This document shows positions 38,605-64,000 of a stretch of 64,000 bases of DNA, piece by piece. The notes under the pieces are model-generated. The model was not told the DNA's origin, did not search any database, and worked only from the letters and a program-made list of their open reading frames with translations. The DNA comes from Candidatus Freyarchaeum deiterrae. GTDB lineage: Archaea > Asgardarchaeota > Jordiarchaeia > Jordiarchaeales > Jordiarchaeaceae. Numbering within the stretch: position 1 is the first letter of the stretch; each line of letters opens with the position of its first letter. The stretch is from positions 2,656,001 to 2,720,000 of the forward strand of contig CP147778.1 of the NCBI GenBank assembly GCA_037305845.1, given 5' to 3'. The position numbers were made by a program, and so were the translations under genes.

Positions 38605-38818
38605 TTTTCCACAGCCCATCCACATCTTTCATTATGTTGTCCATTTCCTCGTCCCATGCGCCGGTTAAGTCCTCGAGGGGTATTATCTTCTTCAGAACAG
38701 CTTCTCCCCCACCAGAAACTTCAATTGACATGTAATCACCCTCTTTTATTTCAAGCTCTTTGCGAACGCTTTCGGGTATTGTGATCTGGTAGTTTCTCGT
38801 GCCTTTCACCTTAGCCAA
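38519..38818 (-). CDS. AbrB/MazE/SpoVT-family antitoxin (VapB); C-terminus probably frameshift-extended
   Basis: KVKGTRNYQITIPESVRKELEIKEGD. One extra A in TGGAAAAATGG would end the protein as WKKWKL*, overlapping the vapC start. Confidence 0.85.
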   Translation of the reverse strand: MAKVKGTRNYQITIPESVRKELEIKEGDYMSIEVSGGGEAVLKKIIPLEDLTGAWDEEMDNIMKDVDGLWKNGNYKCGMRRHRHNSRLPQRQRTRKVGL

Positions 38819-39026
38819 GTGGCTTCCCCCTAAAATATTTTATTCCTAGTAAAATATTAAATTCTAATATAAAAAGAATTTCTAGCACTAGCACAACCAG
38901 CCGGGGAGGGTAGTGAGATTTTGTTCTCTTTCTATCTTATCCGTTTCCAAGAAGTATTTAAACGGTGGTATGAGGTTGTTTTATCTGTTGTTTTTTGGTG
39001 TTTCTGTGGGTTTAATTGAGGGGCGG

Positions 39027-41528: not shown

Positions 41529-42131
41529 TTGCTCAGCACCATGAAAATGGTGGAAAGATGGGCAGCAGCCACCATAGCACTGCTCGCGGTAAGCATCATC
41601 ACGCTAGCCTACCACTCAACAAAGGTATACTGGTACACCAGCCTAACACTACTGCTGACGCTGGGACCCACGCCCACGGGAATCCTCAGCCTCGCAGTCC
41701 TTAGCGCCTACCCCGCAGAGTTCAGCATAGGGATAAACGCAGGCGTCTTCGCAGGCTTCTGGTACAAACTCTTACTGGACCTAGCCTACCTAGCACCCGT
41801 AGGAGCAGCCCTCTTCACAAGCCTGGTCACTACCCTGTGCTACTCCCTGAGAGAATTTCCGGGCTGCGAAACACCCGACGGCGTAACGGAGAGAATAAGC
41901 CAAATAGCGACTCTGGGCGAAGACCGAGACCAGGTGGAAGTAGCCCTCGCCCTGATCATATTACCATGCATACTAATGAGCGTCCAAACCTACGTCTACA
42001 TCCTAACACCGGTCACAAATCCCCTAAACCTCTTAATCCTAATCATAGTCCTCACACTAAACCTGCTGACCACGTACAATTTCGGCACAAGCATAGGACG
42101 CATCACACAACAGGAAGAAGTGATACGCTAA
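41529..42131 (+). CDS. Multi-pass membrane protein (200 aa)
   Basis: GGAGGTGA SD; 5-6 hydrophobic spans. Confidence 0.75.
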   Translation: MLSTMKMVERWAAATIALLAVSIITLAYHSTKVYWYTSLTLLLTLGPTPTGILSLAVLSAYPAEFSIGINAGVFAGFWYKLLLDLAYLAPVGAALFTSLVTTLCYSLREFPGCETPDGVTERISQIATLGEDRDQVEVALALIILPCILMSVQTYVYILTPVTNPLNLLILIIVLTLNLLTTYNFGTSIGRITQQEEVIR

Positions 42132-42831: not shown

Positions 42832-43048
42832 ACAAAGAAAAATAGGGACGATGCGTCGACAGGGGAAAAGAAGCGGATTAACTATCATGCCATGTGCCGT
42901 AAGGCACAAAAACCAACTCAAATCAAAATCCTGCTTAAATAAATGCGAGGAGCTTAGTTGAAGAGGCTGGATGAATAATGAATGTGCCCCAGCAGGGATA
43001 TCGGGTTAACAATCATGGGAGGATGTTACCATAGGGTTCCTAACCTTC

Positions 43049-46000
43049 GTGTTCTTCTGCGCTCTCTTCATAGGAGCGGACGTCCAACAGATGCAAGCCG
43101 TCCAACAGATAATGGATAACATCTACCAGTACGTGAATATGCCCGATATGCAGCAGGCGGAAAGAGATGGAAACATCGCCCAATGCCTTAACACATTCTT
43201 CCAAGGAGGAGCAATAGGACTATACGAAGGGGGATGGCCCTGGGGGCATGGTTACGTAGCCGACGTATGGGGTCCCGATTGGGAAAAGCCGAAACCAGGC
43301 CATGTCTACGTTTACAACGACACCAGCTACGTCGGAGGCAGAAGAACCCTCTACTTCGAAATAATAAGTTATCCGTACTACGACGTGAACAGCCTCCCCG
43401 ACGGCTTGTTGCGTGAACTGTGCGGTAACTACTCAGACCCCTTAGCCAAACCTGATCCGTTGGTAATCTATCACCGGTACAATGATGAAAAGGTTCCCTG
43501 GGCTGGCGACCAAACCTCACTCTCCACATTTATGGGAAGAATGCTTCTGCTCTCCAAGCTCAGGCACATAGACTACAGTAACCCCGTAAATCTGGCGGAG
43601 CAGTGGTCTAATTATCTGGATAGGTATCAGTTCGATTTTAATGATCTGGACTACATATACCGGAACTTTCCGCTGGTACTGCAGAATCCTTGGTTATGGC
43701 TCCAGAGCGGCTCCAGTCTGAACAGTTTAATGGAGCTTGTAGGCTCCGGTGTAAATCTGAACAACTTCAGCTTCGTGTCTGGAGACAACCCACTATACAA
43801 TTTCTTATGCTCCGTTTGGGGGGCGGAGCAACTGTACTCCCTCTGGGAGGCTAATTTTAACCAAACCGATGCTTGGCAGCTGGTACGCTTTGGTAACGAC
43901 ACTTTCGTGCCCTTGCCCTACTTAGTATCATATACCCATGTTTTGGATGAGATGGGGGTTCTTAGCCCGTTTGGTGGGATGGACTCGGATTCTGAAATCT
44001 ATGGGACAGACAGCAACTGGAACCTTACTCGGAATGGGAACGCTTCCCTGTACAGTTACGAGTTCACTCTGAGCAGTATTTTCAACTCTCTAGCAAACAG
44101 CACCCTCATCTCGGATTGTAGCAATGACTCGGAGTGGAATGCAACCGGGCAAAACGTTACCCTCTCAACCGATGGCTACAGCATAATAGTTAACGTAACG
44201 GGAAAATCCTCAAACACCACCACCCTCAGCTACCGTTTAAACCAGCCCTTAAATCTGTCCAATTACCAATCTCTGCTCCTCTGGTTCAACGTGAACGCCA
44301 CCCGAAGCAACTTCACAACCCTAAAAATAACCCTATACGACCAGCAAGGAAACTGGAAAACGTACTCCAATTGGACTTATAACACATCTCAGAGATGGGA
44401 GCGACTCACACTGGACTTGGATGAGCCGGACTCCAAAAATGGAACCTTCGGCAATCTAACCAACATAACGATAACCGCTACCCCCAATCAAAACCTCAAT
44501 TACAGTTTATCAATTGACGATGTGAGAGTTAGTTCCCGTATATTGTGTGAGTGTCTCTGGAACACCGACTGGTCGTATCAGCTCCTCAACGGGACCGGAA
44601 ACCTCACCACCACGGTTTACGGATACCCCTACGTTTACGATTACCCCTACTCCCTCGGCCTAGAATGGAACTTAACCAATGTAAACGGCTCCGCTAAATA
44701 CGTTTACAATCCTCGGGGGAACTGGAGCCTCGACCCCGAGGGCTTCCTAACCTTTATGCTCTACGGGTTTGGGACTGAGCAGCAGAACGCCACCCTAACC
44801 CTGCGTCTGTGCACCGACCAGAACAACTCCTTTAACTACAGTCTGGGAAAAGTCGACTGGTATGGGTGGAGGAAAATCTCCGTCCCCCTGAAGCTGATGA
44901 ACAAGACTGGAAGCGCCAACCTCTCCCGCCTAGATTACCTAGAATTCAAACTGGATAGTATGAGTAACGGAACCGGTAAGCTGGTTGTTAGCGATATTCG
45001 CGTCGAGCCCGCCCAGTGGACTAAAGTAGAATTCGTGGTTCCCGACACTCTGAACAACGCTGACAAAGACAGTTATCCCTTTATAGACCTCTACTGCTGG
45101 AACGGCTCCAAATGGTTAACTGTAGGTCGGTGGGACGCTAACGACTCCAGCGCTAGTGTAGGATACAGCGTTCTCTGGAGCAACCTAACCCTTCTGGACG
45201 GCACCAACGCCAGCAAACTATTCTCCAACCAGAGCCTGTGCCTGTACCCTGTGGGAAACGGTTCCAAAAACCCTTACTCCGGAGCTGCGGGAGCTATAAA
45301 CTACACTACCACTAATAAGAACTCCGCGGGCTTCGCGGTAATGCTTCCACCCCCAGCCTACGGCAACAGGAGCAGCGTCAAGTTCAAGGTGGAGGTACAC
45401 TACAACTCCACGGGGGACGTTATCAACACCAGTAGTTACCCGTTAGCTCTCCTCTATTTCAACTCCACATTCACGAATCTCAGTCTCACCGCTAAGGACT
45501 GCTACGACATCTGGCTGGATCATACCTTTCTGAGCAATTGGACGTATGATAATTGGTCTGTGAACAGCACCCACACCAGCAACGGCGACATACTGGATGT
45601 CTGGACCAAGTACAAGGGCAGCAACGCCAACTACACCTGGTACACAAACCTGTCCAACGTAGTGGACGTAGGGTGTTACCCCAACGTATACCTTGTCGTG
45701 AAAATTACCAGCTACAATAAAACCGACGGCAGTGGCACGAATAAAAACCAGTTGGGAGTGGAAATCTACGATAATGTCAGCAAGGCGTGGAAAATCAGCA
45801 GCACCTACGTCACAGGTAACGCTACCAACTATACCTACGTGTGGCAAATGAATTCCTCCTGGGATGTGGGAAGAGTAGGATTCTTCTTCAATTACCGAAG
45901 CAGCGGCGGGCAGCAGGAGGTCAAAATAGACAGCGTCAAACTGGTAACAGTGCAGAACAGCAGCCAGTACCAGGAAAACCAGTACCCATTATACACGGGG

Positions 46001-49000
46001 AATGGTTCCAGCGTATTGTTCCTGAACCTCAGAACAGCGGCGGGTGCGGGTAAACAGCTTCGGGAGTTCCGAGTTAACGGTGGAAACGTCACCCTGCTGT
46101 CAGCAGTGTTAAGCAGTCTGGGCAACTGGACGGTGGACTCGTTGAACTCCACAGTCTTTGTAGCGGGCGGAGACAGCGTTACCATTCAGGGCTCAAACCA
46201 CATGTACCTGAACTACACTTTCTCTCCCCTGTTGAACATAAATTATAGTAACACCTTCATGGATGTGGTTTACACTTCCTCTTACTCCTATGATGAGAAC
46301 ATCTCAAACCTAACCCTCCGGGTGAAAGTGGATAATAACTGGTTGAACTACACCCTCCCGCCCAACAGTGAGGAATCGCAGAGGTTCCGAATCCCCCTCA
46401 ACGGTTCCAATCTGGGGGCAATCTGCTTTGAGCACAGCACAAACACCAGCGAGGACTGGTTCTCCATTCAGTCCATAAACGTTTTCCATCTCACAAACAT
46501 CACACAGTACTTGCAGACCGCCGTTGGATACTGGAACCAAACCAGTCTCAGCGTCCCCGGCTACTCTCCGAGATTCACTCAGATATTGAATGCCACGGAG
46601 TTGCCCGCGAGTTTATCCGCGTGGGCGTACGTGAACGGAAGCAATAGCAGTTCGCTCACCGTAGAGTTCTTCGATGAGAACGGCACCTTCCTGAAATCGG
46701 ACACGGTATCCGTGAATGGATCCAATTGGCACCCGGTTTGCCTAGTGGACTTTACCCAGCCTGAGAACGCTTCAACTCTGAAGTTTATAGTGGCGGCTGA
46801 TAAACTGGATCACGCTTACCTCTGCCCCTCAATCTTGACCAGCGGTGGAATATATGAGGGTTTCAATAGTCTTAAGGGCTGGACTGCTATAGGCAACGGC
46901 ACAGCGGAGAATAACAGTCAGGGATTAACGGTAACACTAAACAATGGGACTCTAACCCTATGGACCGATGTTTCGGAGCTGGGATTCGACTTTTCAAGTT
47001 TCGACACCATAGCCGCAGCGTACAACATAAGCGACAACGTGAATGCAAGCATAGTTTTTGACTGGCTTCTTGTAGATGCAAACGGAAACCAGACGGATTA
47101 TCAGTCATACGTGAATCTGTCCAAGGATTCAGCGTGCGCCGTTGACTCTATATCCAAATATTATAAGACTTATGCTCCCATACCCTTCCCATTTGAGGAT
47201 TGTGTGGAAAACTTCTCTTACACGAATTTTGATTTGAACCGAATTATGCTCAACTTCTCGGGAACCGGTCAGGCTAACGTATCCTGGGTTCAGACCCAAT
47301 ATATTCCAGATTGGGACTTCATATCGGTAACCGATAACATAACATCAACCCACCTGTACGTTAACTGGCTCACCAAATCCCTAGTGTTCGGAGGCGTCTT
47401 CAACAGCAGTACCATGGGTAAGCCGAACTGGGTGGGGCTTATGCACACCTTCTTAGAGGATGTAAACCTCACAACCAATCCGGTACTGGAAGTGGATTTC
47501 CGAACCCAGAACACCAGCCTCAAACTAGGCTTGGAAGTCTTGGTTTATGATGAGCTGGGCTTTCAATGGGTCTGGAAGCACCTACCAGCCTCAGATGTCA
47601 TTTTCGAGCACCCCGTATACACGCCCGCCTTTGTGAATGTTCCCGATTACCTTCGGTCAAAGGACGGGCGTCTTTACACCTCCCTCCGAGCCATCCGACT
47701 GTACGTGAATGATACTACTGGTAACTATTCAGGACTGGGAAGCATGGAGGTATCAAGCGTTTGGCTGCATCCCGCATGCGGCGCTCCCCTATCGTTCCTA
47801 GTATTGGATGATTTCGAAGCCGACGACCTTTCACGGTGGCAGGAGGAGGCAGGCTGGCTTCTCCCCTACACCGACCTCACCCAGTGGAGCAGCAACCAGA
47901 TAATCTGCGGCGGAAACATAGCATACGGTCCCCCAGGTTGGGAGGACGACAGCTTCCAGACCGGCTGGTACAGCGGATACAACTACTCCTCAAACGGCGA
48001 CGTCCTGACCTGGACCCCCTCCAACTACCCGTTAAACGTCTACAACATCACTGGCGGTACCTCAGACACCGAGGTCGAGTTAAGCACATATCTCAATACT
48101 CGGTGGTTCCGTCAAGGGGACACTCAGATGAGGCTGGGCCGCGAGGACACGACCTGTTGGGTCTACGTACCTCCCTATGCTTATCCTGTGACTGTATATG
48201 TTTACAAGCGATCCTTCGTCCGGTTTCCGCTCTACATCCCCGAGAACGCTATTATAACCAACGCTTGGATAAGCCTCAAGTCTAAGACCAACGAAACCAA
48301 TAGCTTCCCCTGCGCCATAAACCTGCTGGACTCCGGCAACTTTCCAGAATTCACATCCGACCCTTGGGATTGGCCGACATCAGGTGGCGCTGTGGGTTGG
48401 ACCGTGCAAAACACCACTGCGGATTGCTGGTACAACACCTCAAACATTTCATCACTAGTTCAACGCTTCATAAACACGACGGGATACTACCCTGGGAAAT
48501 ACGTGGGATTCAGACTTATGGACAACGATACCGTGGGGGACTGGAAGACTTGGTACACTTACGAGAGCGATCCACAGAACGCCCCAAAGCTCTATGTTTC
48601 CTACACTGTACCACAGAACTACTACATCTCAAAGGAAATCAATGTGGATGTCGGCGAGTATCCCTGCCTCGTTTTCAGAGCCAAGTGTAACGTGGACAAT
48701 AGCACCATCAAGGTGGCGCTGGGAACGCCGGGGGACCGTTACTATTATAAAACTTCCTTCGAACTCAACCAGAACTATCGAACCTTCGCCGTTCCCATAT
48801 CCAACGGCTTCAACGCCACCAGCATCACGGTCTTCTATCCAGAATTTCAAAACGTGAAAGTGGACATAGACTACGTGGGGTTGCTAAGGTCGGTAAGCCT
48901 AGAGGGCACGGTGATGAACAGCTCCCTCTCGGTGAACGGAGGATTCGAAAACGGCGACTTCTACAACTGGACCCTGTCGCAGTGCTACGGGTGCACAGTT

Positions 49001-52000
49001 GAATCCTCTGGGCTGGTTGCTGAGGGGGTTCACGCTGGGAAGATTACCTGCAATGGTGTTGGTCAGTGGCTTTCACGCACTGTGCCTGGTGATAACATAG
49101 TCAAGTTCTCAATCTACAAACCCGGCAGCTTTAACACAAGTAGCAAATACTTCTTCCAACTATACGATGCGGGCTCAGGGAAAAAGATAATTTTCTATCT
49201 GGTGGACTCCTTCGACACGAATGTGAGTTTATACGGGGACAGTAAAAACAAGGCTATCCCATGGTCTCAGAAAAGCGGAACCTATAAAGATTACTACATA
49301 GACCCCCACGCCCTATACAACCTATACTGGAATAATACTGACCCCACCCAGGTTGAGATTAGGTTCGGTGTGGAGGCAAACCAGTCATCATCTTACATGA
49401 TTATTGACGGCTTCGGGGTCTGGGATCGCGGCTCGGGTTTGGCACCAAATAATATTGCGATTGATTCAAGCATGCCTTTGGATAATCATGATTCTCTGAA
49501 GCTCTCGTACTCCTTCCCCAGCGAGAGCACCGACGTCTGTACGTACACCTTCACCATCGATAGAGACTTCAGTCAGGAGAAGTACTTCTCCCTCTGGGTT
49601 TACCGGGACAGCAAGAAGTGGAACAACACTCTAGACATTTGCCTGCGTTGCAAGGACGGTAGCTTCGGCGGCTGGAACATGACCATGAACTGGACGCAGG
49701 ATTGGAAGAAGCTGGTTCTCCCCCTGGACAATTTCACTTACCAGTCTGAATCAGTGGTTTCGGGGCAGTTGGAAAAAATAGTAATCAGTTTGAAAGACCA
49801 GTACGGTTATGTCAAGGAGGACGACTGGATTCTCATAAGCGGTCTGCTCTTCGGACACCAGTACAACTTCACTCTCACCAGTGAGAGCTACAGTGGAAAT
49901 GGAGCGGTGAGAATACAGAACCCGAGCGGAGGCTGGGTAAAGGTATTTGCGTCGGGGAACGAAACGGGCACTATTCCCTTCACCCCCGATGAGCTTCTCT
50001 GCTTCGCGGCTATGCCAAAGGGTGACACTCCCTGGGCGGTCATGGTGGATTTAACTTTAAAGGATGGAAGCACCGCAACCCTCGTCTGGTACCGCGGCAG
50101 TCGCCCCATTCCATCAGAGTATCCTTACGATTACTTAACACAGATTGACTCTAACCCCGACAACTGGAACGAGTATCGCCTGAACCTGTTCGACGCCGTA
50201 AAGAACTACGCCGAGCAGATGGGCAGGGGCGGCTTCCAGAGCATAGATAAGGTCGCATTCCTAGTGGGTCCCGGGGAGGTGGTTTTCGACAGTGTTCTCG
50301 TGAGGAATGTCCCTGAGAACCTAGACACCAGTCCCTTAAGCGTCTTAAGCAGTCCCGTGATATTCTTCTACGATGAGGCTTATCCCTGCAGTTGCGGCGT
50401 GGGAGGAAACGATTGGAGTTTGGTTAACAAGACCTTTACCACACTGGAGGCGGGCCTTAAAAATATGAACATTAGTGTGGTTTGGGCTGATGCTCAAGAG
50501 ACGAGGAAGCTTATGAGCAGCTATCCTCGAAGCCTCCTAGTAATCGCGGGAAGTATTGTGCCCGATACCATCTGCGGAAGGGAGGGATATTCAGTTCTTG
50601 AAAACTTCGTGGAGCGTGGCGGCACTGTTCTATTTCTCAGTGATGATTATGCCCCTGTGAGCGCTGTGGGGCGTGAGGGCTATGAAACACTCTGGCTTAA
50701 TGGTATAGGGTTGGAGTACCTTTTGGACGCCAAGTCTCCGACCACAGAATTATTCAACTATTCAAGCTTGAAGCCTCTGAACATAACTATGGATCCTACA
50801 GAGATGGGGGGTAGTCTCGGGGCTTTGAACCGTTTGAACGCTTCGGGTTTCGCGTGGCTCATACCCTATCTTCGCTATCAAAATCTTTGGGTTGAAACCT
50901 ACTACTATAACTCTTCCGAACAGTTGGGACGGGGAGTGTGTGTACGTCCCCAAGACTCGTTGGGCTACGTGGCGGAGTTCCCTCTGTCCATGGTCTCGGA
51001 AGGGAACGATACCGGTGTGGTCGTGAAGTTTGTATCAGATCACTTTATTAATTTGTGGCTGGACACCTCAGGTTCTAACTTCGACGACTACGAGAGACCC
51101 TTACCCGGGGTCTCCGATGAAAAATTTATGGACTACTATGGAGAGATGAAGGCGGGAAACTGGACATTCACAACTGATATACCGTCTGAAGAATACTACG
51201 CATCCGCAGATTTCTCAGCCTCTTGGCATGTTTACCTTAACACCTCTCTGAGTTCCGATAGAAATGATTCCATAACCGCCACCTATTCGGTGAATCCAAA
51301 CAGCAATATTTCCATATCTGAGTTTCCGTTCTTCACCGCAACTATTCTCACCATAGGCAACTATACCCGTCTCAAGTTGGAAGCAGAAGTTTCGGGACAA
51401 TACTACACACTTTTTGACGATAATGCGTCTGATTGGCGCAAGTACGTCTGGTATCTCCCCAACATTTGCGCGGAGGGCGAATTTCAGGGTATGCGGGTAA
51501 CCATGTATGAGAACTGTTCCGACGGTGCGGGGAACGCGAGCGTCACGCTTACCAATCTGGGAGCTTACACGGTAGCCGTGCCGGAGTACGGTTTCCCAAA
51601 ATCCCTAAATGTGGACTTCCAGAACTCCTCTCTTTATGATTACTTGTTCTCAGGGGACAGTGATTACCCATTCATGGGCTTCAAGTTTAACGACACCAAG
51701 GACAGCGTTTACACTATAACCCGAGAATATCCCCAACCCTATAGTTTCTTGGACTACCCCTACCTTGAGTTCGCCTCATCGGGCACCGAGGGCAACTACA
51801 CGGTGGAGCTGTGGCTTCAGAAGAAGTGCAGCGAGCAGAGCTACGCTTGGTACCTGCTTGACTGCTTCAACGGCTCCGATTCAGGCTCTTCACAAAGGGT
51901 TATGGGATACAACCTCTACGCTAAATTCAACGCTTACTACGAGCAATTCAAGGGTGTAACTGCTGACCTGAAAGGCTGGAAATTGATTTTAAAGGGCAAC

Positions 52001-55000: not shown

Positions 55001-58000
55001 GAGAATAATGTTCAGGGTGAGGCGAATGCTAAACTAGATTTGTACAAGGAGTTTATGCTTTCTCTCAGAGGTGTTATAGACCCACCGGTGAACTATACTG
55101 CTGGTGGTGACTACCGTAATGTGAATATGACGGTTAGACTGTATGTGCAGTACTTCTACGCGAACAATTCGGCTATCCCGAACGGCACCATTCTGTTCAA
55201 TGAGACCACCATCAACTATCTTGATAATAATAACTGGATTAGCTATGTTCTTGATGTTCCCAGTAAAGCTCCGGCTGGCGCTAGTAAATGGACTCCCCTT
55301 ATCCGGACTGTGGGTCGCCCTGCGGACAGCTTCTGCCACCTGTTCCTCGACGATATGAAGTGCCCCCAGACCTACCAGACTTCGCAGCAGAACACGAGTG
55401 CTAATATTGCTTGGGTGGCGGGAGATGGACACGGGCATGTTTTGAACTGCTCTAGCACTGGTAGCGGGGACTCGACCATTTGGGATCAGGTTTTGAATAT
55501 TCCCTTCTCACCCGACCTAATGTTCAACTTCGACATTAACCCGATTAATGGTGGTGGTGGTGGTGGTGGTGGCTGGTGGTTGGGATTGAAGTTCCGGGTG
55601 CAGCTTTACGAGTTTTTAACCAGCTACAACGTTACGCTGAACGTTACCTCTCCCACCAGTTATGTGGGTCCTATGGATGTTAATCTGAGCTTTGAGAATG
55701 GGACCTGTTTTAAGGGTAGTTTGTTTGTGATGGAGGATAACGCGACTCATGTTCCCTTCACCGTGAGGAATCAGACCGTTTTAGGAGACTATGTTTTGAA
55801 CATGAGTATCAGCATTCTTGCGAATGTTTCTGCGGGTGAGACTAAGCAGTATAAGATATTTTGGTCGGATTACGATAATCCTTTGCCTGATCTGGTTTCT
55901 CCGAATCTTAGGGTTGTGAATTGGACTGATAATACTCAGGGCAAGAATGTTTCCGTGAACTGCACCGCTACGGATGCGAACATGAGCCGAATGGTTCTGC
56001 ACTACTATGATGGTTCTGCTAATTGCAGTAAGGACATGGTTTTGAAGTCTGGTTTCTACGTGGGGAATTTCTCCTACTCTGGGTCTTACCAGTTTTGGGT
56101 AGAGGCTTTCGATAATTGCAGTAATCCGATGAGGACTTGGACTTACCCCGGTAATCCGCCAGTTTTGAATGTTAATATGAGTGAGAGTGAGGTCTATATA
56201 CGCGACAGCATTCCTGCGGGCACCGATTCTGTTTGGCTATATTACAGTGATGGTGCTCAGAAGTGTCTGAATAGCACGGAGGATAGTTTGACTTACGGTT
56301 ACCGGTTGGATTGCGTTAGGGGTGGTTGGAACCAGTTCCTGCGTCTTCCTTATTCGGATATCTTGGAGATTTTCACTCTTCGTTATGAGAGCCTGCCCTC
56401 TTGGCAGCCTATGGTTTTGGAGAGGATTGAGGGAGGCGGTCTTGGTAATAGTAGTTATATGCTTGATAATATTAAGTGGGGGTTGTATCCGAGGACGGTT
56501 CTTGACTACTCTAGTCAGAGCGCTATGAACTTCTACTTCAGCTATGACCCCAGCATTCCCGTGGTGAAAATTGTTTCGGGGCGTATTATTAGCGGCGGTG
56601 CGGCTTTGCTTAATGCTACTTGCAGCGATATTCCTTCACAGACTTTGAATGAAACCACAGCAGGAATTGGACGGGTGGAGTATACTGTTTCTAACAGTAC
56701 GAGTGTGGTTTATAATTCGACCATGGTGAAGCAACATGCGGACAACAACGATACTACTTACGTTTATACTGATTTCTGGTACGATTACTTCGATTCAACT
56801 ACGCTTCCAGACGGCTTCTACAAGCTGAACGTGAGTGCTTGGGATAATTCTGGGAATCGGGCGGATGACACACAGTACATTATAGTTTATAATAGTAGGC
56901 CTAAAGTGGAGTTTCTCAACGTTTATGATAACCTGAGTGTGGGCCGGGTTCTCAGTGTGCTTGCGAGAACCACTGATGTGTTTGATGTGACCAACACTAG
57001 CCTCACGGTTACCAATATTGGTACAGGTAATACTACGGTTTACAATATGAAGGAGGGTTACTTCCAGAAGCAGAATATCTGGACTTATAACGTCCTGTTT
57101 AACCAGAGCGGAAGGTACACCTTGAGCTGTAATGCTACAGACTACTTCGGCGTGGGAAGTGATGTTGTACGTGTGAATATTTCTGTGGACGCGAGTCTGC
57201 CCAGTGTGATTATTAACTCTCCGCAGCCGAATGAGTGGGTTAGTGGGCAGTATCTCCTCAATGTTACAGCTTTTGATGATAACAATATTAGTAGTGTGCG
57301 GTGGAGGGTGTACGTTATCGCGAACGAGACTACCGGGCGTTTGGAGATTCCCTATGGTTACAGTGATGTTTGGAACGATACTTCTTCTATTGGTGGCGGC
57401 ATTTACACGGCTGTTTGGAATACCACTTCTCTTAATGCAAGCGAGTCACTGATTCATCGCTACGTGGTGGTGTTTAAGGTGTCTGACAATAACACCATCC
57501 CGAATACTGTTTATAGCAATGTGACGATTTGCGTGGATAACACTGTGCCCTATATTATTGATGGCCCTAGTGTTGTGGCTCAGAACAATGTGGAGGAGGG
57601 TAAGAATGTTGAGGGCTTCACCAAGGAGACGAATGAGAACGGCACCGTTATCTACACCAAGTTTGTCAACGCTAGTTTGACCTTTGCGGTTAGTGACGAG
57701 AGGCTGATGAAATACTATGATATTGAGCATAATACGAGTCAGGCTAATCTGGAGGCATATCTTGGTTGCTTGGGCATGACAATTCTCGATGAGTATGAGA
57801 ATGGGAGCAGGTTTTACTCTGATTGCTCCGTGATGAGCGGTTCTAACGGGGTTTTCTTTGTCGTTGAGAACTACACTCTGGTTAGTGGAATGCACAATCT
57901 GACATTGACGGTTAGTGACCTGGCTGGGAACACGAACCGAAGCATCCGAAAGGTTGACATAGTAGTGGACCAGACGGCGCCGATTGTGATTCCTATTCTG

Positions 58001-61000
58001 CCTAGAACTGGCATGTGGCTCAAACGAGTTATCAACGCCAACTGGATTCTGGGGTCTTTCATGGGCGCTCTTTATTGGCTTGATAGTCTATTTGATACAG
58101 AAACATCTATCCCTGACTGGAGCGAAGGTGTTCTCTTCGGCGTGTATGTTGACGACCTTGCTTCTCCAGTATTAACCAATACAATCTATTTGGACCTGTC
58201 TAATCGTCTTATACACTTTGGACCAATGACACCAGACTACTATCCATGGATAGGTATGTTTAATGATTTCTCTGAACGAGGAGCGTTAAACCGTATTGTT
58301 CAAGCTATAAATAATTTAAGTGACTCTGATGCAGATTTGCTTTATTCGTTTCTTGCATGCAGCGGGTACAATGATTTAGGTCTCATGAAATTTGAAAGAT
58401 TGTACAGCGATAAGGTTTTCTGGTACGGTGTGGCTTTCACACCACTTGATTTCTTATTTAACATTTTGAGCCTTAGCTGCCTTAATCCTACTACATTTAC
58501 ATGCAAATTCACGGCTTGGGATAAGGCAGGCAATGAAGGATACGCTTATTCCACGTTTGGCATTATTCCTTACGCTGATCGATTTTTCCTTCAAATGCAA
58601 GGATCAGATAATTGTTTCTATGGATACGCATCGTTTGATGCTTACGTTAAAACGATTCAGCAGGAGATTGAGAACGCCCACCAGCAGGGAAACGGAACCA
58701 GTCAGGGAACCAGTTCAAGTCAGGGAAACGGAACCAGTCAGGGGGGAGCTGTCCAGTATGTAGACATGTCAGTTTCCACGCCTCTATCAAACATTATTGT
58801 GAATTCTAGCAGTCTGTCCAGTGGTTCTGATACACTTAACTCCCAGAGTTGTGGTGTTTGTGGCGGAGGAACTGGTAGCGTTAGTGGTAATGAGACTGGC
58901 TGGGCTCCAGTCGAGAACCTGGCTACCGTGGAGCAGGCTTTGAACTATGAATTAAGCGGGGATGTTTCGTTCCTTCCCTGGATGAAATTTAATTTCCGAG
59001 TGTTTGGAGCACCCAGAGACATTAGTTTGAATGTAAAGTTCGGTGTAGCCCCGTGTGTTCGACTGTTCTTTGACCCGCTGAGCTTTGAGGAGTACGGAAG
59101 CAAGGATGATAGTGTGCTTCTACGCGCTACTCCTGATACTTGGAACACTTTCACTATACCCTTGTACCGGATGGCCAGGTCTCTCGGCTTGTTTAATGGT
59201 TTAAACGCTCCCACGAACATTAGCACGATTAGTGTCAGCGCTTACGGTGAGCGTAAGACTTGGGAGAGGCGGGCGGTTTTCGACAACTTCTGGGTCGCGA
59301 CACCGGTTCCTCTGGTTGAGGATTATGCTGAGAAGGCGGCTCTCTCCCGCGACAACTATTACAAGGTTCTAAATGTTACTAAGGAGAGTAATTTTGAGGT
59401 TTTGAAGCAGGACATTTCTGAGGTTTTCGCGGCGAGCTACATGGGGGACTTTGAGTATCTGGCAGCGGTTTTGGGGAATTTCACTCAGCACCTGTTCCCG
59501 TCGGGTGAGATGGCTGAGTTCACGGGCGCCTCTGTCCGAGTCGTGAGCTACAACAACAGTCTGAATGAGAGTGTGCCCCTGTTCGTGGTGTACAGCTTCC
59601 CAGAGGGGCTTGAGAATGTTTCCCTGTTAGCTGCCTATAACTATACTAATATTCCTAACCTGGATCTTTCACGCGAGGCTGTGCTTAATGCTAATATCAC
59701 GCAATTGTGCCAGCTTTTGGCTCAGGGCGGAGGTGTGCTTAAGCCTTACGGCTTGAGTGATGCGGATTTAGCGTACTTGCCGTATGGTGCGGCGAGCTTC
59801 GTTATTGTGAATGATACGGTTTGTATAGACCGTTTGAGTGCGAAGCCGTGTACCATTCAGACTGTGTTGGCTACGATTGCTAGTATTGCGGAGAGGGTGT
59901 GGAATCAAAAGTGTGTGGCTCAGGTTGTGGAGCAGGAACAGGAGGCCCAGCAGATTGAGGCTTTGAGGGCTTTTATTAACGAGGAGGCCTATCGGGTTGA
60001 TACGTTCAATAAGTTGTTGGCTGCCTTGCAGTGGGTTAACTACATGCACCCCTACAACTGGGACCGAAAGAGCTTCGATACCCTTATCGACCCCAACACC
60101 AGTCCTTACTGGCTCTCCTACACTTACGCTAGTTGGGGCAACGCGACCGGTTACGAGTTGCTAAGCGAGTGTCTCGCTAACATAACCCAGATGCTGGACT
60201 TTGGCGACTACTTCGGTGCCCCACCAGTCTTCATCACATCCGGCGAGTATAACCGTACTGCGGATGCAGCGGGCGAGAAATGCGTACTCATCTACAAGGC
60301 CCTGGAGAGAAACCCCAGCTGGAATTACCTTTTGGGCGCGGTTCAGGGAGAGGTTTTATGTGCAGTGTTCAACGACACTAATGTTTTGAACGTAGCTAAG
60401 GAGTTCGGGAGAAGGGCGAACTCCACACTAGCGGATGTTTACGTTTACCTCACGGAAATGGCTTTCATGTACACCAGACCCTACAACACAGAGGAAATAA
60501 TGAATAGCCCGGCACTTGACGCCTTAGGACAACTGTTCAGTGGTGCTACAAACATTGTTGACCAGATTGGTAGCCAAGTTCAGAATCTGATTCAATACTT
60601 CACAGCCGTCCCATTTGTCAACTTGGTTTCCACTCTCAATGCTCTCTTTACTCAGAAGTTCGACCAAAAATGCATATCGCTGGGCATAGATAATTACGTG
60701 GAGTGGCTCGCCCAGCAGGACGAAGCGAGTCTCAATGACTTTGGCGATAATAATACTTATGATTCTGGAACTATATCCGCATTAGACCCTGGAGAGACGC
60801 TAGGCGAATCAGCATCAAATAATTCCATGCCCACAAATGGTTATGATGTTTCCAGCAGCTCAGTGCCTCCAAGCACTGGCCAAGTCATTCAGCAAAACAG
60901 TTTATACTCCAACGTAAACGCCATATGGGATGCAATCTTAACAAATCCGCTTACCATTTACGCCTATGAATACACTAAATCTGATTGGAGAACTCCAAAG

Positions 61001-64000
61001 CAAGGACAAGCGGTTACTCCCCCCAATGGTCCCATTCTCTACATGGGAAGCAGACAAAGCGGCGGGAAGTTAGGTTTCGAATCTTCCAGATTCCTATATA
61101 ACATCATTAAAATCTTGCAGAATACATTCCAAGAAAGAGAAGGCTCTGGCTCCGAATTTACTCGCAGTCTTCTTGCTTATTACATAGGTAAACAACATAG
61201 AGATTTATCGAAACTAGCCAGCCTTTACCCGAATATAGGTGTAGACCAAGCACTAGGAGTTTATATAATTGATACCACAAACACTCTAGTTGACCCAACT
61301 ACAGGCATTGTATTTCCCATCGATGATAAAGAACAACCCACAGGATTCTGGGACTTTGGCATAACCGTCCAACTCTCACTGGTTAGCTACGGCGACGTAG
61401 ACGGCGGATTCATAGATGAGGCATTCATCATCCAAAACGACCCCACCACCTGTCTAGCTAGAAAACTGTGGCTCCAACAAGTAGACAGCCAAGGCAAACC
61501 AATAATCACAAATGATAGACTAATCCGACTAGGACTAGGATACTATGAAAGAACAGGCGAAACTTTACACTTCCAAAGCTGCATAGACGACAAAACAGGC
61601 GCAATAATAAGACTCCCGCTATGGGACATGGGATTCAACCCCAACACTATAGAACCCGGCAAAAGTGACTACGTAATCAAACTAGACCAAATATATGAAG
61701 ATGGACGTAAATTCGACACAGGCAAATTCGATTGGAGTAAGGCACAGCCAACCTTCGAAAAGACAGGAGAAGCGATGATTTGGGGAAAGATAATACCCAA
61801 CGGGGATAAATGCATTCTAAACCTAGTAAGACAAAACATAGATTATTTATTACCAGCATCGACAGACGTAACAGATGACCCTTACAGTATTTGGTGGACC
61901 AGCTCTACTCAATTAGGAACATTTAGTGATGGAACTTTACACGCAAAGTGGAATGGCGGAGATTTACCCTCCCTCTTGGATAACTTGATGAACGCTTTCG
62001 GAGTAAACATAGGCGAACAAGATATGATTCGCCTTTACAGCAAGGATTACATGCGCCCAAGTCAAGGAGGCCAATCTCTTAAAATAATGAAATGCATATC
62101 GCAGATGCTAGATGGAATGAGCATAGCTTGGATGGCTGGCATGGCTCGAAAGCCAATCAGTTTTGATAAGGTCAGAAGTGTTCTTGGACAGACTTTTGTG
62201 GAGCAATACTTTAAAGCATACCTAGAAAATGGAAGACACATCAACGATAAAGGCTTAATGGAAGGAAGCGATAGATACGCTCTGGAAATGCTTCAAGGAA
62301 GCGAAATATGCAACGTGGATCCAAACGGCGGCACCAATCGCATTAACCCAATATTTTATTCAGTCGACATAGACCCCTCAATACTAGATCAAACAACTCA
62401 CACGGGATACAGTTTACCAAGAGGAGACATGCCCCTATTCAAAGTCCCAGCTTCAGAATTCAAAGACCAATTACCAGATTCAATAAAGCCCGACGAAAAA
62501 GGCTATGTTTTACTAGGAATCGACATCCCAACCAGCGAAGAAAAAGGACAACCAGTTGTATTCATACCAATATTCACGAAAGACGCCCCCATAAGCCACA
62601 ATAATAATCCCAGTGACTTTACCCAAAGAATAACGGACACCAAATCCCCAGTACCAGTCGTATCAATTATGCAACAGTTCTGGAACAGCATAGAAAAATA
62701 CGCAGTATACACATATAATGGAAAAGAATACAAACCACTCCTGAAAACAGAAGAACCAACAACTGAGAAGACGAACATCTATTCTGATTCTGAATACACC
62801 CCCACGAGTTTCCTAGAAATATTCCACATGCTAGGCATTCTAGAAAATATATGCGCCTTATTCGCAACACACACTGGTGCTAGCGAAGATGCAAAGACAC
62901 GCAGAGAAACTCTCAGTCTCGCGTATTTCTTTTCCGAATTGAGAGGAGTCTTAGTAGACGAACCTAAAACATGCTTGGAACTATTCAAGGCATTCGGAGG
63001 AGATAAGGTGCTGGCAGAATTACGCAAAATCAAACCAATAATACCGTACTCCAACATGGCACAATTAGGATGGTTTACTCTAACAGGACGAACACTAGAA
63101 GATGTTAAAAATGCTTTCCCTGAATGTAAAAAAGACATCGAATCGCTGCTTCAATTATGTAAATCCGGAGAAAACATAATCCCCACCCAAGTAGATTTAC
63201 TAACCATTCTTCTCTCATACACCGGAGCTCAAAGAGCTATAGGACAAAAAAATATCTATCTCCCCATAAAAGTGGACACCACAGACCACACTTATAAAAT
63301 TGGAAGCGCGGTCTTCAATATTAACACAGAAGACTTAAAATTACTGGACAATGTAGGAGTGCCTACAGACGAGTACGGAATCACCTTCCTAGCGGCTAAC
63401 TATCGTCAGTCTCCAGATTTGAGTTTCACCCAACTTAAAGCAAAAGACGAACAACTATTATTAAAAGTGGGCGGAATACAAATACTCAACACAGTTGAAC
63501 CAGCAAGCATCAGAGAAGTTTTCGGAGGGAGAGTCGCCGGCGTACCAAAGGAGAAGCAAAACCCACAAATTTTCGACAATCTGCTAAAATTCACAGAAGT
63601 GAGTATACCCGGTAGTTACATGAGGGGCGGAGAAGAGATACAGCGTCCTTACTCATCAGGTTATTACTCCTTCGTTGAATGGCTCATGTCAGAAAAAATG
63701 AGACTCGGCGAAATTTTTGATATTGGTAAAAAAGAGGGAATGGACAAATTAAATTACATGGACTTACTGATTAAAGGATGGGGAAACGAGCGCTCCACAA
63801 AAATTCTAGAACAGCAGAAAAGCCTTGACAATGAATACCACACCCGCCTCGAAGACTTATGGGCACTATACCTCCACCAGAGAACCAGAATTTCCCCAAC
63901 CGAAAGAAGCAGCATGGACACATTCGGCACACTGTACCAAATCCTAAAAGGAGACATTACTGAAGAAATGGGCAACCAGCACGCGATAGACTACGTGGCT
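43049..64000 (+). CDS. Giant secreted/surface glycoprotein, at least ~6,970 aa, 3'-partial (CBM-like jelly rolls, 2x DNRLRE-like, GATase1-like, DUF2341, Ig-like domains, unknown C-terminal region)
   Basis: Frame +2 opens at 43010 (first GTG 43049, first ATG 43091). Every segment I translated is stop-free up to ...EEMGNQHAIDYVA at the window end. No track ORF in this span uses frame +2, as expected if it contains no stop. Confidence 0.93.
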   Translation, partial: MFFCALFIGADVQQMQAVQQIMDNIYQYVNMPDMQQAERDGNIAQCLNTFFQGGAIGLYEGGWPWGHGYVADVWGPDWEKPKPGHVYVYNDTSYVGGRRTLYFEIISYPYYDVNSLPDGLLRELCGNYSDPLAKPDPLVIYHRYNDEKVPWAGDQTSLSTFMGRMLLLSKLRHIDYSNPVNLAEQWSNYLDRYQFDFNDLDYIYRNFPLVLQNPWLWLQSGSSLNSLMELVGSGVNLNNFSFVSGDNPLYNFLCSVWGAEQLYSLWEANFNQTDAWQLVRFGNDTFVPLPYLVSYTHVLDEMGVLSPFGGMDSDSEIYGTDSNWNLTRNGNASLYSYEFTLSSIFNSLANSTLISDCSNDSEWNATGQNVTLSTDGYSIIVNVTGKSSNTTTLSYRLNQPLNLSNYQSLLLWFNVNATRSNFTTLKITLYDQQGNWKTYSNWTYNTSQRWERLTLDLDEPDSKNGTFGNLTNITITATPNQNLNYSLSIDDVRVSSRILCECLWNTDWSYQLLNGTGNLTTTVYGYPYVYDYPYSLGLEWNLTNVNGSAKYVYNPRGNWSLDPEGFLTFMLYGFGTEQQNATLTLRLCTDQNNSFNYSLGKVDWYGWRKISVPLKLMNKTGSANLSRLDYLEFKLDSMSNGTGKLVVSDIRVEPAQWTKVEFVVPDTLNNADKDSYPFIDLYCWNGSKWLTVGRWDANDSSASVGYSVLWSNLTLLDGTNASKLFSNQSLCLYPVGNGSKNPYSGAAGAINYTTTNKNSAGFAVMLPPPAYGNRSSVKFKVEVHYNSTGDVINTSSYPLALLYFNSTFTNLSLTAKDCYDIWLDHTFLSNWTYDNWSVNSTHTSNGDILDVWTKYKGSNANYTWYTNLSNVVDVGCYPNVYLVVKITSYNKTDGSGTNKNQLGVEIYDNVSKAWKISSTYVTGNATNYTYVWQMNSSWDVGRVGFFFNYRSSGGQQEVKIDSVKLVTVQNSSQYQENQYPLYTGNGSSVLFLNLRTAAGAGKQLREFRVNGGNVTLLSAVLSSLGNWTVDSLNSTVFVAGGDSVTIQGSNHMYLNYTFSPLLNINYSNTFMDVVYTSSYSYDENISNLTLRVKVDNNWLNYTLPPNSEESQRFRIPLNGSNLGAICFEHSTNTSEDWFSIQSINVFHLTNITQYLQTAVGYWNQTSLSVPGYSPRFTQILNATELPASLSAWAYVNGSNSSSLTVEFFDENGTFLKSDTVSVNGSNWHPVCLVDFTQPENASTLKFIVAADKLDHAYLCPSILTSGGIYEGFNSLKGWTAIGNGTAENNSQGLTVTLNNGTLTLWTDVSELGFDFSSFDTIAAAYNISDNVNASIVFDWLLVDANGNQTDYQSYVNLSKDSACAVDSISKYYKTYAPIPFPFEDCVENFSYTNFDLNRIMLNFSGTGQANVSWVQTQYIPDWDFISVTDNITSTHLYVNWLTKSLVFGGVFNSSTMGKPNWVGLMHTFLEDVNLTTNPVLEVDFRTQNTSLKLGLEVLVYDELGFQWVWKHLPASDVIFEHPVYTPAFVNVPDYLRSKDGRLYTSLRAIRLYVNDTTGNYSGLGSMEVSSVWLHPACGAPLSFLVLDDFEADDLSRWQEEAGWLLPYTDLTQWSSNQIICGGNIAYGPPGWEDDSFQTGWYSGYNYSSNGDVLTWTPSNYPLNVYNITGGTSDTEVELSTYLNTRWFRQGDTQMRLGREDTTCWVYVPPYAYPVTVYVYKRSFVRFPLYIPENAIITNAWISLKSKTNETNSFPCAINLLDSGNFPEFTSDPWDWPTSGGAVGWTVQNTTADCWYNTSNISSLVQRFINTTGYYPGKYVGFRLMDNDTVGDWKTWYTYESDPQNAPKLYVSYTVPQNYYISKEINVDVGEYPCLVFRAKCNVDNSTIKVALGTPGDRYYYKTSFELNQNYRTFAVPISNGFNATSITVFYPEFQNVKVDIDYVGLLRSVSLEGTVMNSSLSVNGGFENGDFYNWTLSQCYGCTVESSGLVAEGVHAGKITCNGVGQWLSRTVPGDNIVKFSIYKPGSFNTSSKYFFQLYDAGSGKKIIFYLVDSFDTNVSLYGDSKNKAIPWSQKSGTYKDYYIDPHALYNLYWNNTDPTQVEIRFGVEANQSSSYMIIDGFGVWDRGSGLAPNNIAIDSSMPLDNHDSLKLSYSFPSESTDVCTYTFTIDRDFSQEKYFSLWVYRDSKKWNNTLDICLRCKDGSFGGWNMTMNWTQDWKKLVLPLDNFTYQSESVVSGQLEKIVISLKDQYGYVKEDDWILISGLLFGHQYNFTLTSESYSGNGAVRIQNPSGGWVKVFASGNETGTIPFTPDELLCFAAMPKGDTPWAVMVDLTLKDGSTATLVWYRGSRPIPSEYPYDYLTQIDSNPDNWNEYRLNLFDAVKNYAEQMGRGGFQSIDKVAFLVGPGEVVFDSVLVRNVPENLDTSPLSVLSSPVIFFYDEAYPCSCGVGGNDWSLVNKTFTTLEAGLKNMNISVVWADAQETRKLMSSYPRSLLVIAGSIVPDTICGREGYSVLENFVERGGTVLFLSDDYAPVSAVGREGYETLWLNGIGLEYLLDAKSPTTELFNYSSLKPLNITMDPTEMGGSLGALNRLNASGFAWLIPYLRYQNLWVETYYYNSSEQLGRGVCVRPQDSLGYVAEFPLSMVSEGNDTGVVVKFVSDHFINLWLDTSGSNFDDYERPLPGVSDEKFMDYYGEMKAGNWTFTTDIPSEEYYASADFSASWHVYLNTSLSSDRNDSITATYSVNPNSNISISEFPFFTATILTIGNYTRLKLEAEVSGQYYTLFDDNASDWRKYVWYLPNICAEGEFQGMRVTMYENCSDGAGNASVTLTNLGAYTVAVPEYGFPKSLNVDFQNSSLYDYLFSGDSDYPFMGFKFNDTKDSVYTITREYPQPYSFLDYPYLEFASSGTEGNYTVELWLQKKCSEQSYAWYLLDCFNGSDSGSSQRVMGYNLYAKFNAYYEQFKGVTADLKGWKLILKGNAQQNDSKNCLFTLKYIALTDYYTGWRIYPGGMNYSGGQGYGNGGGSGLGMEQGLGASENSSLSPSVSSVSSSSSSGQDSPAISESVKSSGVDVSEIVSKEDYCLSPSAWSVYNSSGGVEARIVSGEYVELWMRRAIADDWAMFRYDLGEGVNVSQTNFLDFKMRVRPEGGLRLVAYVEVSSGGGLVELGEYSADGVWISWRLDVLSLLAKAGVNNSLVTGLVFKLVCEGGSGRYDCYADLSYLKFSGFASWRGGLSTLFYNDGVYSVFHFESLRGATIIYSIPPDYRGFSLTFNANYFLEKTSCKGVNMFFYDFTQGSWVNVLTLDRMESWENVSVGVDGNFVRGYDGRFLVYLAPLYSEDIDVNLRLDSAEVVATTSTQNYLKQSGLLTMSLDGTSGSGGGSLPTDLDKVFDHLGGEAVWFGEDYYHSGSSVSDWLTGWSYRKPVRVNNSGSVNLYAFQVKLTLQGTNPSQVGYVDFGKIAPDGSDIRFTAADGLNPISFWIESWNNTNKTATVWIKCPLLGNNSVTVYYMYYGFKNAESLSNGEDTFLFFDDFSGDILNPGKWIVTGNVTVNNGVVTIGGGSVESRIESTYKYGNMTIVQCRAQVSDNWSTPTQITRNYSVDGSASDSELKTTPSFFGPTTYENYYTSSSMSLGYDGFYTFYPSHRTFVRFRLDIPVGSTISNAYISLKSSINESTSGNQSDMWLLNYYNCPDFSGGTPLQDMPTAGNPVYWTLPVTYQDNWYNTADISSLIQSYIGMANYQPGSCYAGFRIGEGTMVYPLKSWYQCDSNASNAPRLVVSYIPPLNQSTISAVVSLSDYSDPDPGDVITLGRVDGNTYPGKWVGVVRDYPPSSYYVNSTGWSADTDWHVFQVEWRGANSTRLWRDSSIYDGFLNYSNVPDGDNPLRVMHETNATQRSGTKLLVDYTFVRKYAQVEPTVSYDLEQLPPSVPPASSSYVPVDRLSGSEMVHLYWHMLANVSSIDDYYLEFRLRGDVGAVFENNVQGEANAKLDLYKEFMLSLRGVIDPPVNYTAGGDYRNVNMTVRLYVQYFYANNSAIPNGTILFNETTINYLDNNNWISYVLDVPSKAPAGASKWTPLIRTVGRPADSFCHLFLDDMKCPQTYQTSQQNTSANIAWVAGDGHGHVLNCSSTGSGDSTIWDQVLNIPFSPDLMFNFDINPINGGGGGGGGWWLGLKFRVQLYEFLTSYNVTLNVTSPTSYVGPMDVNLSFENGTCFKGSLFVMEDNATHVPFTVRNQTVLGDYVLNMSISILANVSAGETKQYKIFWSDYDNPLPDLVSPNLRVVNWTDNTQGKNVSVNCTATDANMSRMVLHYYDGSANCSKDMVLKSGFYVGNFSYSGSYQFWVEAFDNCSNPMRTWTYPGNPPVLNVNMSESEVYIRDSIPAGTDSVWLYYSDGAQKCLNSTEDSLTYGYRLDCVRGGWNQFLRLPYSDILEIFTLRYESLPSWQPMVLERIEGGGLGNSSYMLDNIKWGLYPRTVLDYSSQSAMNFYFSYDPSIPVVKIVSGRIISGGAALLNATCSDIPSQTLNETTAGIGRVEYTVSNSTSVVYNSTMVKQHADNNDTTYVYTDFWYDYFDSTTLPDGFYKLNVSAWDNSGNRADDTQYIIVYNSRPKVEFLNVYDNLSVGRVLSVLARTTDVFDVTNTSLTVTNIGTGNTTVYNMKEGYFQKQNIWTYNVLFNQSGRYTLSCNATDYFGVGSDVVRVNISVDASLPSVIINSPQPNEWVSGQYLLNVTAFDDNNISSVRWRVYVIANETTGRLEIPYGYSDVWNDTSSIGGGIYTAVWNTTSLNASESLIHRYVVVFKVSDNNTIPNTVYSNVTICVDNTVPYIIDGPSVVAQNNVEEGKNVEGFTKETNENGTVIYTKFVNASLTFAVSDERLMKYYDIEHNTSQANLEAYLGCLGMTILDEYENGSRFYSDCSVMSGSNGVFFVVENYTLVSGMHNLTLTVSDLAGNTNRSIRKVDIVVDQTAPIVIPILPRTGMWLKRVINANWILGSFMGALYWLDSLFDTETSIPDWSEGVLFGVYVDDLASPVLTNTIYLDLSNRLIHFGPMTPDYYPWIGMFNDFSERGALNRIVQAINNLSDSDADLLYSFLACSGYNDLGLMKFERLYSDKVFWYGVAFTPLDFLFNILSLSCLNPTTFTCKFTAWDKAGNEGYAYSTFGIIPYADRFFLQMQGSDNCFYGYASFDAYVKTIQQEIENAHQQGNGTSQGTSSSQGNGTSQGGAVQYVDMSVSTPLSNIIVNSSSLSSGSDTLNSQSCGVCGGGTGSVSGNETGWAPVENLATVEQALNYELSGDVSFLPWMKFNFRVFGAPRDISLNVKFGVAPCVRLFFDPLSFEEYGSKDDSVLLRATPDTWNTFTIPLYRMARSLGLFNGLNAPTNISTISVSAYGERKTWERRAVFDNFWVATPVPLVEDYAEKAALSRDNYYKVLNVTKESNFEVLKQDISEVFAASYMGDFEYLAAVLGNFTQHLFPSGEMAEFTGASVRVVSYNNSLNESVPLFVVYSFPEGLENVSLLAAYNYTNIPNLDLSREAVLNANITQLCQLLAQGGGVLKPYGLSDADLAYLPYGAASFVIVNDTVCIDRLSAKPCTIQTVLATIASIAERVWNQKCVAQVVEQEQEAQQIEALRAFINEEAYRVDTFNKLLAALQWVNYMHPYNWDRKSFDTLIDPNTSPYWLSYTYASWGNATGYELLSECLANITQMLDFGDYFGAPPVFITSGEYNRTADAAGEKCVLIYKALERNPSWNYLLGAVQGEVLCAVFNDTNVLNVAKEFGRRANSTLADVYVYLTEMAFMYTRPYNTEEIMNSPALDALGQLFSGATNIVDQIGSQVQNLIQYFTAVPFVNLVSTLNALFTQKFDQKCISLGIDNYVEWLAQQDEASLNDFGDNNTYDSGTISALDPGETLGESASNNSMPTNGYDVSSSSVPPSTGQVIQQNSLYSNVNAIWDAILTNPLTIYAYEYTKSDWRTPKQGQAVTPPNGPILYMGSRQSGGKLGFESSRFLYNIIKILQNTFQEREGSGSEFTRSLLAYYIGKQHRDLSKLASLYPNIGVDQALGVYIIDTTNTLVDPTTGIVFPIDDKEQPTGFWDFGITVQLSLVSYGDVDGGFIDEAFIIQNDPTTCLARKLWLQQVDSQGKPIITNDRLIRLGLGYYERTGETLHFQSCIDDKTGAIIRLPLWDMGFNPNTIEPGKSDYVIKLDQIYEDGRKFDTGKFDWSKAQPTFEKTGEAMIWGKIIPNGDKCILNLVRQNIDYLLPASTDVTDDPYSIWWTSSTQLGTFSDGTLHAKWNGGDLPSLLDNLMNAFGVNIGEQDMIRLYSKDYMRPSQGGQSLKIMKCISQMLDGMSIAWMAGMARKPISFDKVRSVLGQTFVEQYFKAYLENGRHINDKGLMEGSDRYALEMLQGSEICNVDPNGGTNRINPIFYSVDIDPSILDQTTHTGYSLPRGDMPLFKVPASEFKDQLPDSIKPDEKGYVLLGIDIPTSEEKGQPVVFIPIFTKDAPISHNNNPSDFTQRITDTKSPVPVVSIMQQFWNSIEKYAVYTYNGKEYKPLLKTEEPTTEKTNIYSDSEYTPTSFLEIFHMLGILENICALFATHTGASEDAKTRRETLSLAYFFSELRGVLVDEPKTCLELFKAFGGDKVLAELRKIKPIIPYSNMAQLGWFTLTGRTLEDVKNAFPECKKDIESLLQLCKSGENIIPTQVDLLTILLSYTGAQRAIGQKNIYLPIKVDTTDHTYKIGSAVFNINTEDLKLLDNVGVPTDEYGITFLAANYRQSPDLSFTQLKAKDEQLLLKVGGIQILNTVEPASIREVFGGRVAGVPKEKQNPQIFDNLLKFTEVSIPGSYMRGGEEIQRPYSSGYYSFVEWLMSEKMRLGEIFDIGKKEGMDKLNYMDLLIKGWGNERSTKILEQQKSLDNEYHTRLEDLWALYLHQRTRISPTERSSMDTFGTLYQILKGDITEEMGNQHAIDYVA
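53306..54830 (+). other. DUF2341 domain plus associated beta-sandwich within the giant ORF
   Basis: WLTGWSYRKPV...FQVKL...DGSDIRF...FWIESW...VWIK...YMYYG...SNGEDTFLFFDDFSG, closing with VDYTFVRKYAQVEPTV. Confidence 0.9.
58685..58743 (+). repeat. 23-bp direct repeat encoding the linker QGNGTSQGTSSSQGNGTSQG
   Basis: CAGGGAAACGGAACCAGTCAGGG at 58685-58707 and 58721-58743. Confidence 0.9.

Follow-up and report, generated by a model that had tools for sequence, protein, structure and literature searches.

A giant surface protein of Candidatus Freyarchaeum deiterrae with an exchangeable, sequon-avoiding tip and a candidate HEAT-repeat immunity partner

Pore-forming colicins and glycine-zipper contact toxins carry Gly-rich hydrophobic helical hairpins at their C-terminus, and their immunity gene is convergent at some loci. 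The hallmarks of polymorphic toxin systems, CdiA/CdiI and Rhs among them, were listed by Zhang et al. (2012, PMC3482391). In Thermococcales, the VARTIG module comprises a large surface protein that contains Ig domains and is hypervariable at its C-terminus, arranged much like a polymorphic toxin system (PMC8416519). Giant proteins of over 5,000 aa have been described from aloposons of the Asgard archaeon Heimdallarchaeum, namely Otus and Ephialtes (PMC8813620). In the literature searched, we found no description of a stalked, contact-delivered effector system in Asgard archaea. Here we describe a giant gene of Freyarchaeum deiterrae that occupies the end of the window (the whole stretch of 64,000 nucleotides that was analysed) and compare it with these systems.

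The Freyarchaeum family displays four genomic hallmarks of polymorphic toxin systems (PMC3482391): a constant body with a variable C-terminus behind a fixed junction; an adjoining candidate immunity gene that co-varies with the tip, possibly because of linkage; standalone tip cassettes together with orphan immunity genes; and the same effector on different export modules, here stalk and acidic carriers as placed by a quick tree. Unrelated toxin domains swapped on one stalk, another hallmark, were not found. Whereas CdiA and Rhs proteins are built of FHA or RHS repeats, the archaeal stalk consists of CBM- and Ig-like domains prone to N-glycosylation, and it bears a one-family tip of ~1,600 aa that has no known fold match, a conserved hydrophobic end, and a partner gene of variable orientation. 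No tile of the protein matched a CdiA trait (TPS domain, FHA repeats, VENN motif, or CdiB partner) in Pfam or NCBIfam. The Gly-rich hydrophobic C-terminus and a partner that is convergent at some loci recall pore-forming colicins, with no significant sequence or fold match. However, the partner is a soluble HEAT protein rather than a membrane protein, and payloads without the hydrophobic module have it too. The variable part of VARTIG is an Ig domain, in contrast to the large non-Ig payload, HEAT partner, and hydrophobic end observed here. Aloposons likewise encode giant Asgard proteins, but both Freyarchaeum paralogs are single rather than tandem, no ParA-like gene was recognised upstream, no tRNA was found downstream by ARAGORN or Rfam, and no homologs were found outside the genus. 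The stalk itself is built from the same domains as archaeal surface proteins with DUF2341, DNRLRE and Ig domains (COG5306).

The giant gene and its start

The first-pass annotation had proposed a hidden ORF of ~7,000 aa or more, and the complete genome bore this out. The ORF (43049..64000, + strand, continuing past the window end) encodes 7,416 aa from GTG 43049, its first canonical start. Extending frame +2 beyond the window located its TAA stop at window-equivalent 65297-65299 (genome C1:2721299), 1,299 nt past the window. Across 43010-64000 this frame has no stops, compared with 238-490 in the other five frames. In total the ORF spans 7,429 codons, with a product of ~829 kDa and pI 4.6. The assembly is a single 3,576,204-bp contig, and the overall topology of the curated genome was validated by Nanopore and PacBio assemblies (PMC11291895). 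The same study tabulates the gene as SRVP-Freya_2527 with an identical stop and reports 1-3 RNA reads in each of three soil samples (PMC11291895). Its published annotation is COG5306, DUF2341-containing only (PMC11291895 Supplementary Data 6), which spans 84 of 7,416 residues and leaves out the payload, junction, and partner. Elsewhere, the published table annotates C1:2415632-2419864 as a predicted multidomain toxin with an S8 peptidase, a delivery module, and an RNase A domain.

The genome carries a second copy of the gene, paralog B (7,252 codons). Since dN/dS between the two stalks is 0.08-0.18, the giant gene is maintained. An assembly artefact or chimera was rejected in view of the paralog, purifying selection, homologs in other genomes, and the published long-read validation. 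The giant ORF is a real surface-protein gene. CRISPR spacers of the genome gave no match to the giant-gene loci. The window itself contains, at 18944-24700 and 27147-39842, a CRISPR array with ~78 repeats, an array of a different type with two repeats, and a type III locus with RAMP genes and a Cas10-like gene; the Cas6 of this locus recurs at another place in the genome as a DNA copy of 95% identity.

Translation probably starts at ATA 43031, which is homologous to the GTG start of the homolog L098, eight bases past GGAGG. An upstream ORF of 18 codons in the +1 frame (42978..43034, + strand) has a TAG that overlaps this ATA (ATAG), and a +1-frame upstream ORF terminates at or close to the start in each of the four N-termini seen (n = 4). 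Translational coupling to the giant ORF, or recoding, is possible. The upstream ORF is conserved and shows the pattern R-[VI]-N-x4-R-M in three of four copies (window 42978-43034; L098, L051), and its peptide resembles the basic n-region absent from the signal peptide of the giant ORF. We rejected two other readings of this region: predicted RNA structure in paralogs A and B was no better than in shuffled sequences, which speaks against an RNA switch, and TAA read-through from an upstream ATG was unsupported, the upstream ATG of L098 lying in another frame. Hydropathy predicts an N-terminal hydrophobic segment (43031..43078, + strand), either a signal peptide or a signal anchor, that is conserved in four homologs; it lacks a basic n-region and is a weak signal. 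Upstream of both paralogs lies a gene for a 200-aa membrane protein (41529..42131, + strand; 87% identical) that was not found in the 30 relatives searched.

Stalk, junction, and sugar-free tip

The predicted glycosylated stalk (43079..58906, + strand) combines CBM-like jelly rolls, a DNRLRE-like pair, Gly/Ser linkers, DUF2341, and Ig-like domains. Several of these had been read by eye in the first-pass annotation with mixed success. Profile searches confirmed DUF2341 (53450-53701, + strand; aa 3481-3564; E 5.5e-23) and the Ig-like folds (~55900-58550, + strand; Big_13 E 1e-6, Big_3_2 E 6e-5). One of the supposed jelly rolls gave a weak match to Agarase_CBM (44135-44362, + strand; E 3.6e-6); CBM11, the family originally named, gave no match. 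The DNRLRE-like domain was a weak match below the cut-off (48206-48598, + strand; E 3e-4), with a second, internal copy at ~53984-54445 (+ strand). A CBM4/9-like start at NGGFENG reached only E 0.13 against CBM_4_9, and a GATase1-like alpha/beta domain found no support in Pfam or PDB. Between the paralogs, the stalk is mostly 74-91% identical. Stalk blocks have been inserted, moved, and deleted among relatives, consistent with domain shuffling and internal deletion, and the same domain types occur in other surface proteins of the genome.

N-x-S/T sequons, noted from the start as very dense, are so up to aa ~5830 (228 observed versus 77.5 expected in aa 1-5830), but over its final fifth the protein is depleted of them. 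An early suggestion of a huge glycosylated adhesin or stalk for cell contact fits aa 1-5830 but omits the C-terminal ~1,600 aa; that of an Asgard archaeon as the source was right. The C-terminal part is a fast-diverging, sequon-avoiding payload, and the giant protein is more than an adhesin.

The transition between the two parts is abrupt. A conserved pre-payload region (58907..60496, + strand) ends in the junction motif EMAFMYTxPY (60455-60484). Among five carriers, identity is 71-90% before this motif and 30-52% after it, and the break in identity and codon usage at aa ~5829 is sharp in every pair of carriers, with GC3 falling from 0.59 to 0.41 across the junction. Downstream follow amphipathic helices and an acidic/Ser linker (60497..60931, + strand), in which the maximum 19-residue hydropathy is 1.2 and hydropathy detected no transmembrane segment. 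Tip identity between the paralogs is only ~29% over ~1,600 aa. Tips are homologous alleles of one family, about 20-75% identical among the few complete genes available, and a single genome holds several alleles.

Sequon depletion of the tip is strong and specific. Twelve tips contain 11 sequons where ~67 are expected, and six distant tips contain 6 versus 36.4 expected (P~3e-9). The depletion is limited to the N-x-S/T spacing, with N-P-S/T and other spacings unaffected, while the ratio of observed to expected sequons in non-membrane proteins of the genome is 0.95. This avoidance implies that the tip meets the glycosylation machinery (oligosaccharyltransferase) yet is selected to stay bare. Staying bare is what we would expect of a protein region that passes through or into a membrane. 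A cytoplasmic tail behind a transmembrane helix was considered and rejected, as there is no helix at the junction and cytoplasmic proteins do not avoid sequons.

The variable, sequon-avoiding payload (60932..64000, + strand, on to equivalent 64501; ~aa 5975-7164) includes a stretch, aa 5960-6760, that is predicted as one compact unit (pLDDT 82.6, pTM 0.88). Its model had no match in PDB, BFVD, or Atlas (best Z 3.6), which does not prove a new fold because the searched model was long. Polar residues are conserved at aa 6089-6180. Recurrent but weak structure matches of the tip to viral proteins like the VETF large subunit (TM 0.05) are a lead only. Neither a toxin domain nor a catalytic motif could be identified in the tip with Pfam, PDB, BFVD, or Atlas, using long models; PADLOC gave no match for the payload, and no relatives were found on viral contigs. 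An HTH-like motif lies at aa ~7075-7130, beyond the window (Z about 5.3), and makes nucleic acid a weakly favoured guess for the target of the payload.

The protein ends in a conserved, Gly-rich hydrophobic module of 265 aa (aa 7165-7429, equivalent 64502-65296), a candidate membrane-insertion domain. Its model is of low confidence (pLDDT 64, pTM 0.44) with no significant fold match, and its colicin/RTX feature scores of 0.78-0.79 do not reach lead level. Third codon positions of the module (L001:8502-9296) are 50% A and 2% T, versus 12% A and 35% T in paralog B, which suggests different strand histories of the two tips.

HEAT-repeat partner, cassettes, and second carrier

Convergent with the giant gene, 46 bp from its stop, is a gene of 352 aa encoding HEAT repeats and a Cys cluster (HEAT+Zn; equivalent 65346-66404, - strand), a candidate immunity protein. 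A HEAT gene lies at most 1.5 kb downstream at 21 of 25 evaluable tip ends, compared with 8 of 600 random gene ends (1.3%). It is convergent with the tip at 11 loci and co-oriented at 10. Payload similarity correlates with HEAT similarity (r 0.50 over 13 loci; 0 of 5000 permutations), and there are three reciprocal-best pairs, one across carrier types. Linkage alone can give rise to such co-variation.

Relatives harbour many 5'-truncated, sometimes frameshifted, tip+HEAT cassettes at ordinary, unrelated loci, and intact HEAT genes persist beside decayed tips. In the genome studied here there are two remnants of tips, and the HEAT+Zn partner occurs in two further copies. One of these copies is in the window (14223..15272, + strand; 57%) with no payload remnant alongside, and is a candidate orphan immunity gene. 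A Ras/Rab-family GTPase gene adjoins the HEAT+Zn gene here (L001:10681-11211) and at the orphan cassette (C1:852274-852801), and GTPase genes are also close to loci L074 and L077. Downstream of the GTPase behind the giant gene are three divergent KaiC/RecA-like genes, as judged by eye (L001:11291-14800). Two tip remnants, at L025/L076 and L037, adjoin genes with repeated DVDGDGKNE (FG-GAP-like) rather than HEAT genes. The 16S and 23S rRNA genes are about 30 kb apart, and between them sit paralog B with its HEAT gene and a remnant of a tip (C1:1804896-1839888).

The payload is also found behind an acidic, charged N-terminus with no stalk and, wherever the 3' end of such a carrier was read, no hydrophobic module. 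At a third locus of this genome, genes for a membrane protein, a HerA/CedD-like ATPase, the acidic carrier, and HEAT form a four-gene run, in which the carrier matches the payload family with E 8e-186. Acidic carriers occur elsewhere at L065, L077, L087, and probably L088; that at L087 has no adjoining ATPase. A HerA/CedD-like ATPase followed by an acidic ORF was seen in two other genomes, both on contigs that end before any payload. In a quick payload tree, stalk and acidic carriers interleave, and the window payload groups with an acidic-carrier payload that shares the HEAT+Zn partner type.

The tip family is present in four of six genomes of the genus, with at least seven 3' ends in one genome. 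It was not convincingly found in 400 genomes of the phylum. A GTDB-wide scan matched only Jordarchaeum/Freyarchaeota and one unclassified archaeal bin, which is the same-genus genome G005, and HMMER over 1.84 billion proteins returned 26 clusters. By these sequence searches, the family is confined to this genus among the genomes covered.

Proposed mechanism and alternatives

A constant stalk, a fixed junction motif, an exchangeable tip, a linked HEAT gene, orphan cassettes, and a second carrier occur together in this family. On balance, we think the giant protein is probably part of a polymorphic, contact-delivered effector-immunity system of Freyarchaeum/Jordarchaeum. From these features we infer its export route, topology, cell binding, and toxicity. 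The protein would leave by Sec and stay tethered, probably via its N-terminal hydrophobic segment, and AglB would glycosylate the stalk. The CBM/Ig-like domains would bind a neighbouring cell, whereupon the unglycosylated tip would insert its Gly-rich helices into the neighbour's membrane and pass the payload inside. There, the payload would inhibit growth unless bound by the cognate cytoplasmic HEAT protein, so that kin would be protected. The acidic carrier would export the same payload through the HerA/VirB4-type ATPase and, if so, would need no hydrophobic module. The complete scheme is more tentative than its outline: contact-dependent antagonism in which a ~830-kDa stalk delivers a new-fold effector via its own membrane-inserting module, with N-glycosylation on the stalk but selected against on the tip, HEAT immunity, and a second, ATPase-driven route.

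Several findings weigh against an effector. The extreme C-terminus of the tip is its conserved part, the mixed orientation of HEAT genes departs from classical toxin-immunity operons, and the tips form one homologous family rather than unrelated toxin domains, none of which was recognised. Similarity to pore-formers is below significance, soil RNA amounts to 1-3 reads per sample, four of 25 tip ends lack a HEAT gene, and the co-variation is explicable by linkage.

A single homologous yet hypervariable tip family, with a co-varying HEAT partner and several alleles per genome, could also be expected of a non-lethal self/non-self identity system comparable to Proteus IdsD/IdsE or Myxococcus TraA. 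Under this explanation the cognate HEAT protein reads the tip as an allele-specific tag, and this recognition decides whether cells adhere, fuse, or exchange DNA; the resemblance of the second carrier's ATPase to CedD/HerA DNA translocases also favours it. We regard this explanation as unlikely, as protection from harm better accounts for intact HEAT genes next to decayed tips and for orphan HEAT copies. Similarly improbable is a giant adhesin or surface filament anchored by its C-terminal hydrophobic module, with a tip that varies for virus escape or change of partner and a HEAT protein that acts as a folding or export chaperone. The CBM/Ig/DUF2341 stalk, the weak N-terminal signal with a conserved hydrophobic C-terminus, and the missing toxin match are consistent with it, and an allele-specific chaperone would likewise co-vary. 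However, this leaves unexplained the active avoidance of sequons, payloads on carriers without stalk or hydrophobic module, and orphan tip+HEAT cassettes. Least credible is an aloposon-like selfish cassette, in which a nucleic-acid-processing or addiction payload spreads payload+HEAT blocks among loci and was taken over by a surface gene: the many copies with truncated 5' ends at unrelated loci, the HTH-like motif, and the HerA-type ATPase of the second carrier favour it, but next to either paralog we recognised neither an integrase nor a ParA-like gene nor a second giant gene in tandem (ORFs by eye, some scanned), no tRNA was found downstream with ARAGORN or Rfam (ARAGORN recovers 17 of the 38 tRNAs reported for the genome), genome coverage is even with no discernible integrated elements (PMC11529989), and sequon avoidance points to export.

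An effector-immunity system of this kind lends itself to testing part by part, through an 800-aa domain of the payload that is confidently modelled and has no structural match, through payloads paired with their cognate HEAT proteins, and through a membrane module. Screening for sequon avoidance could be a general way to pick out translocated effectors among the surface proteins of archaea. The results also suggest that, of the numerous HEAT-repeat genes in these genomes, some serve in immunity and not in trafficking. Interactions of Asgard archaea with neighbouring cells bear on the origins of eukaryotes.
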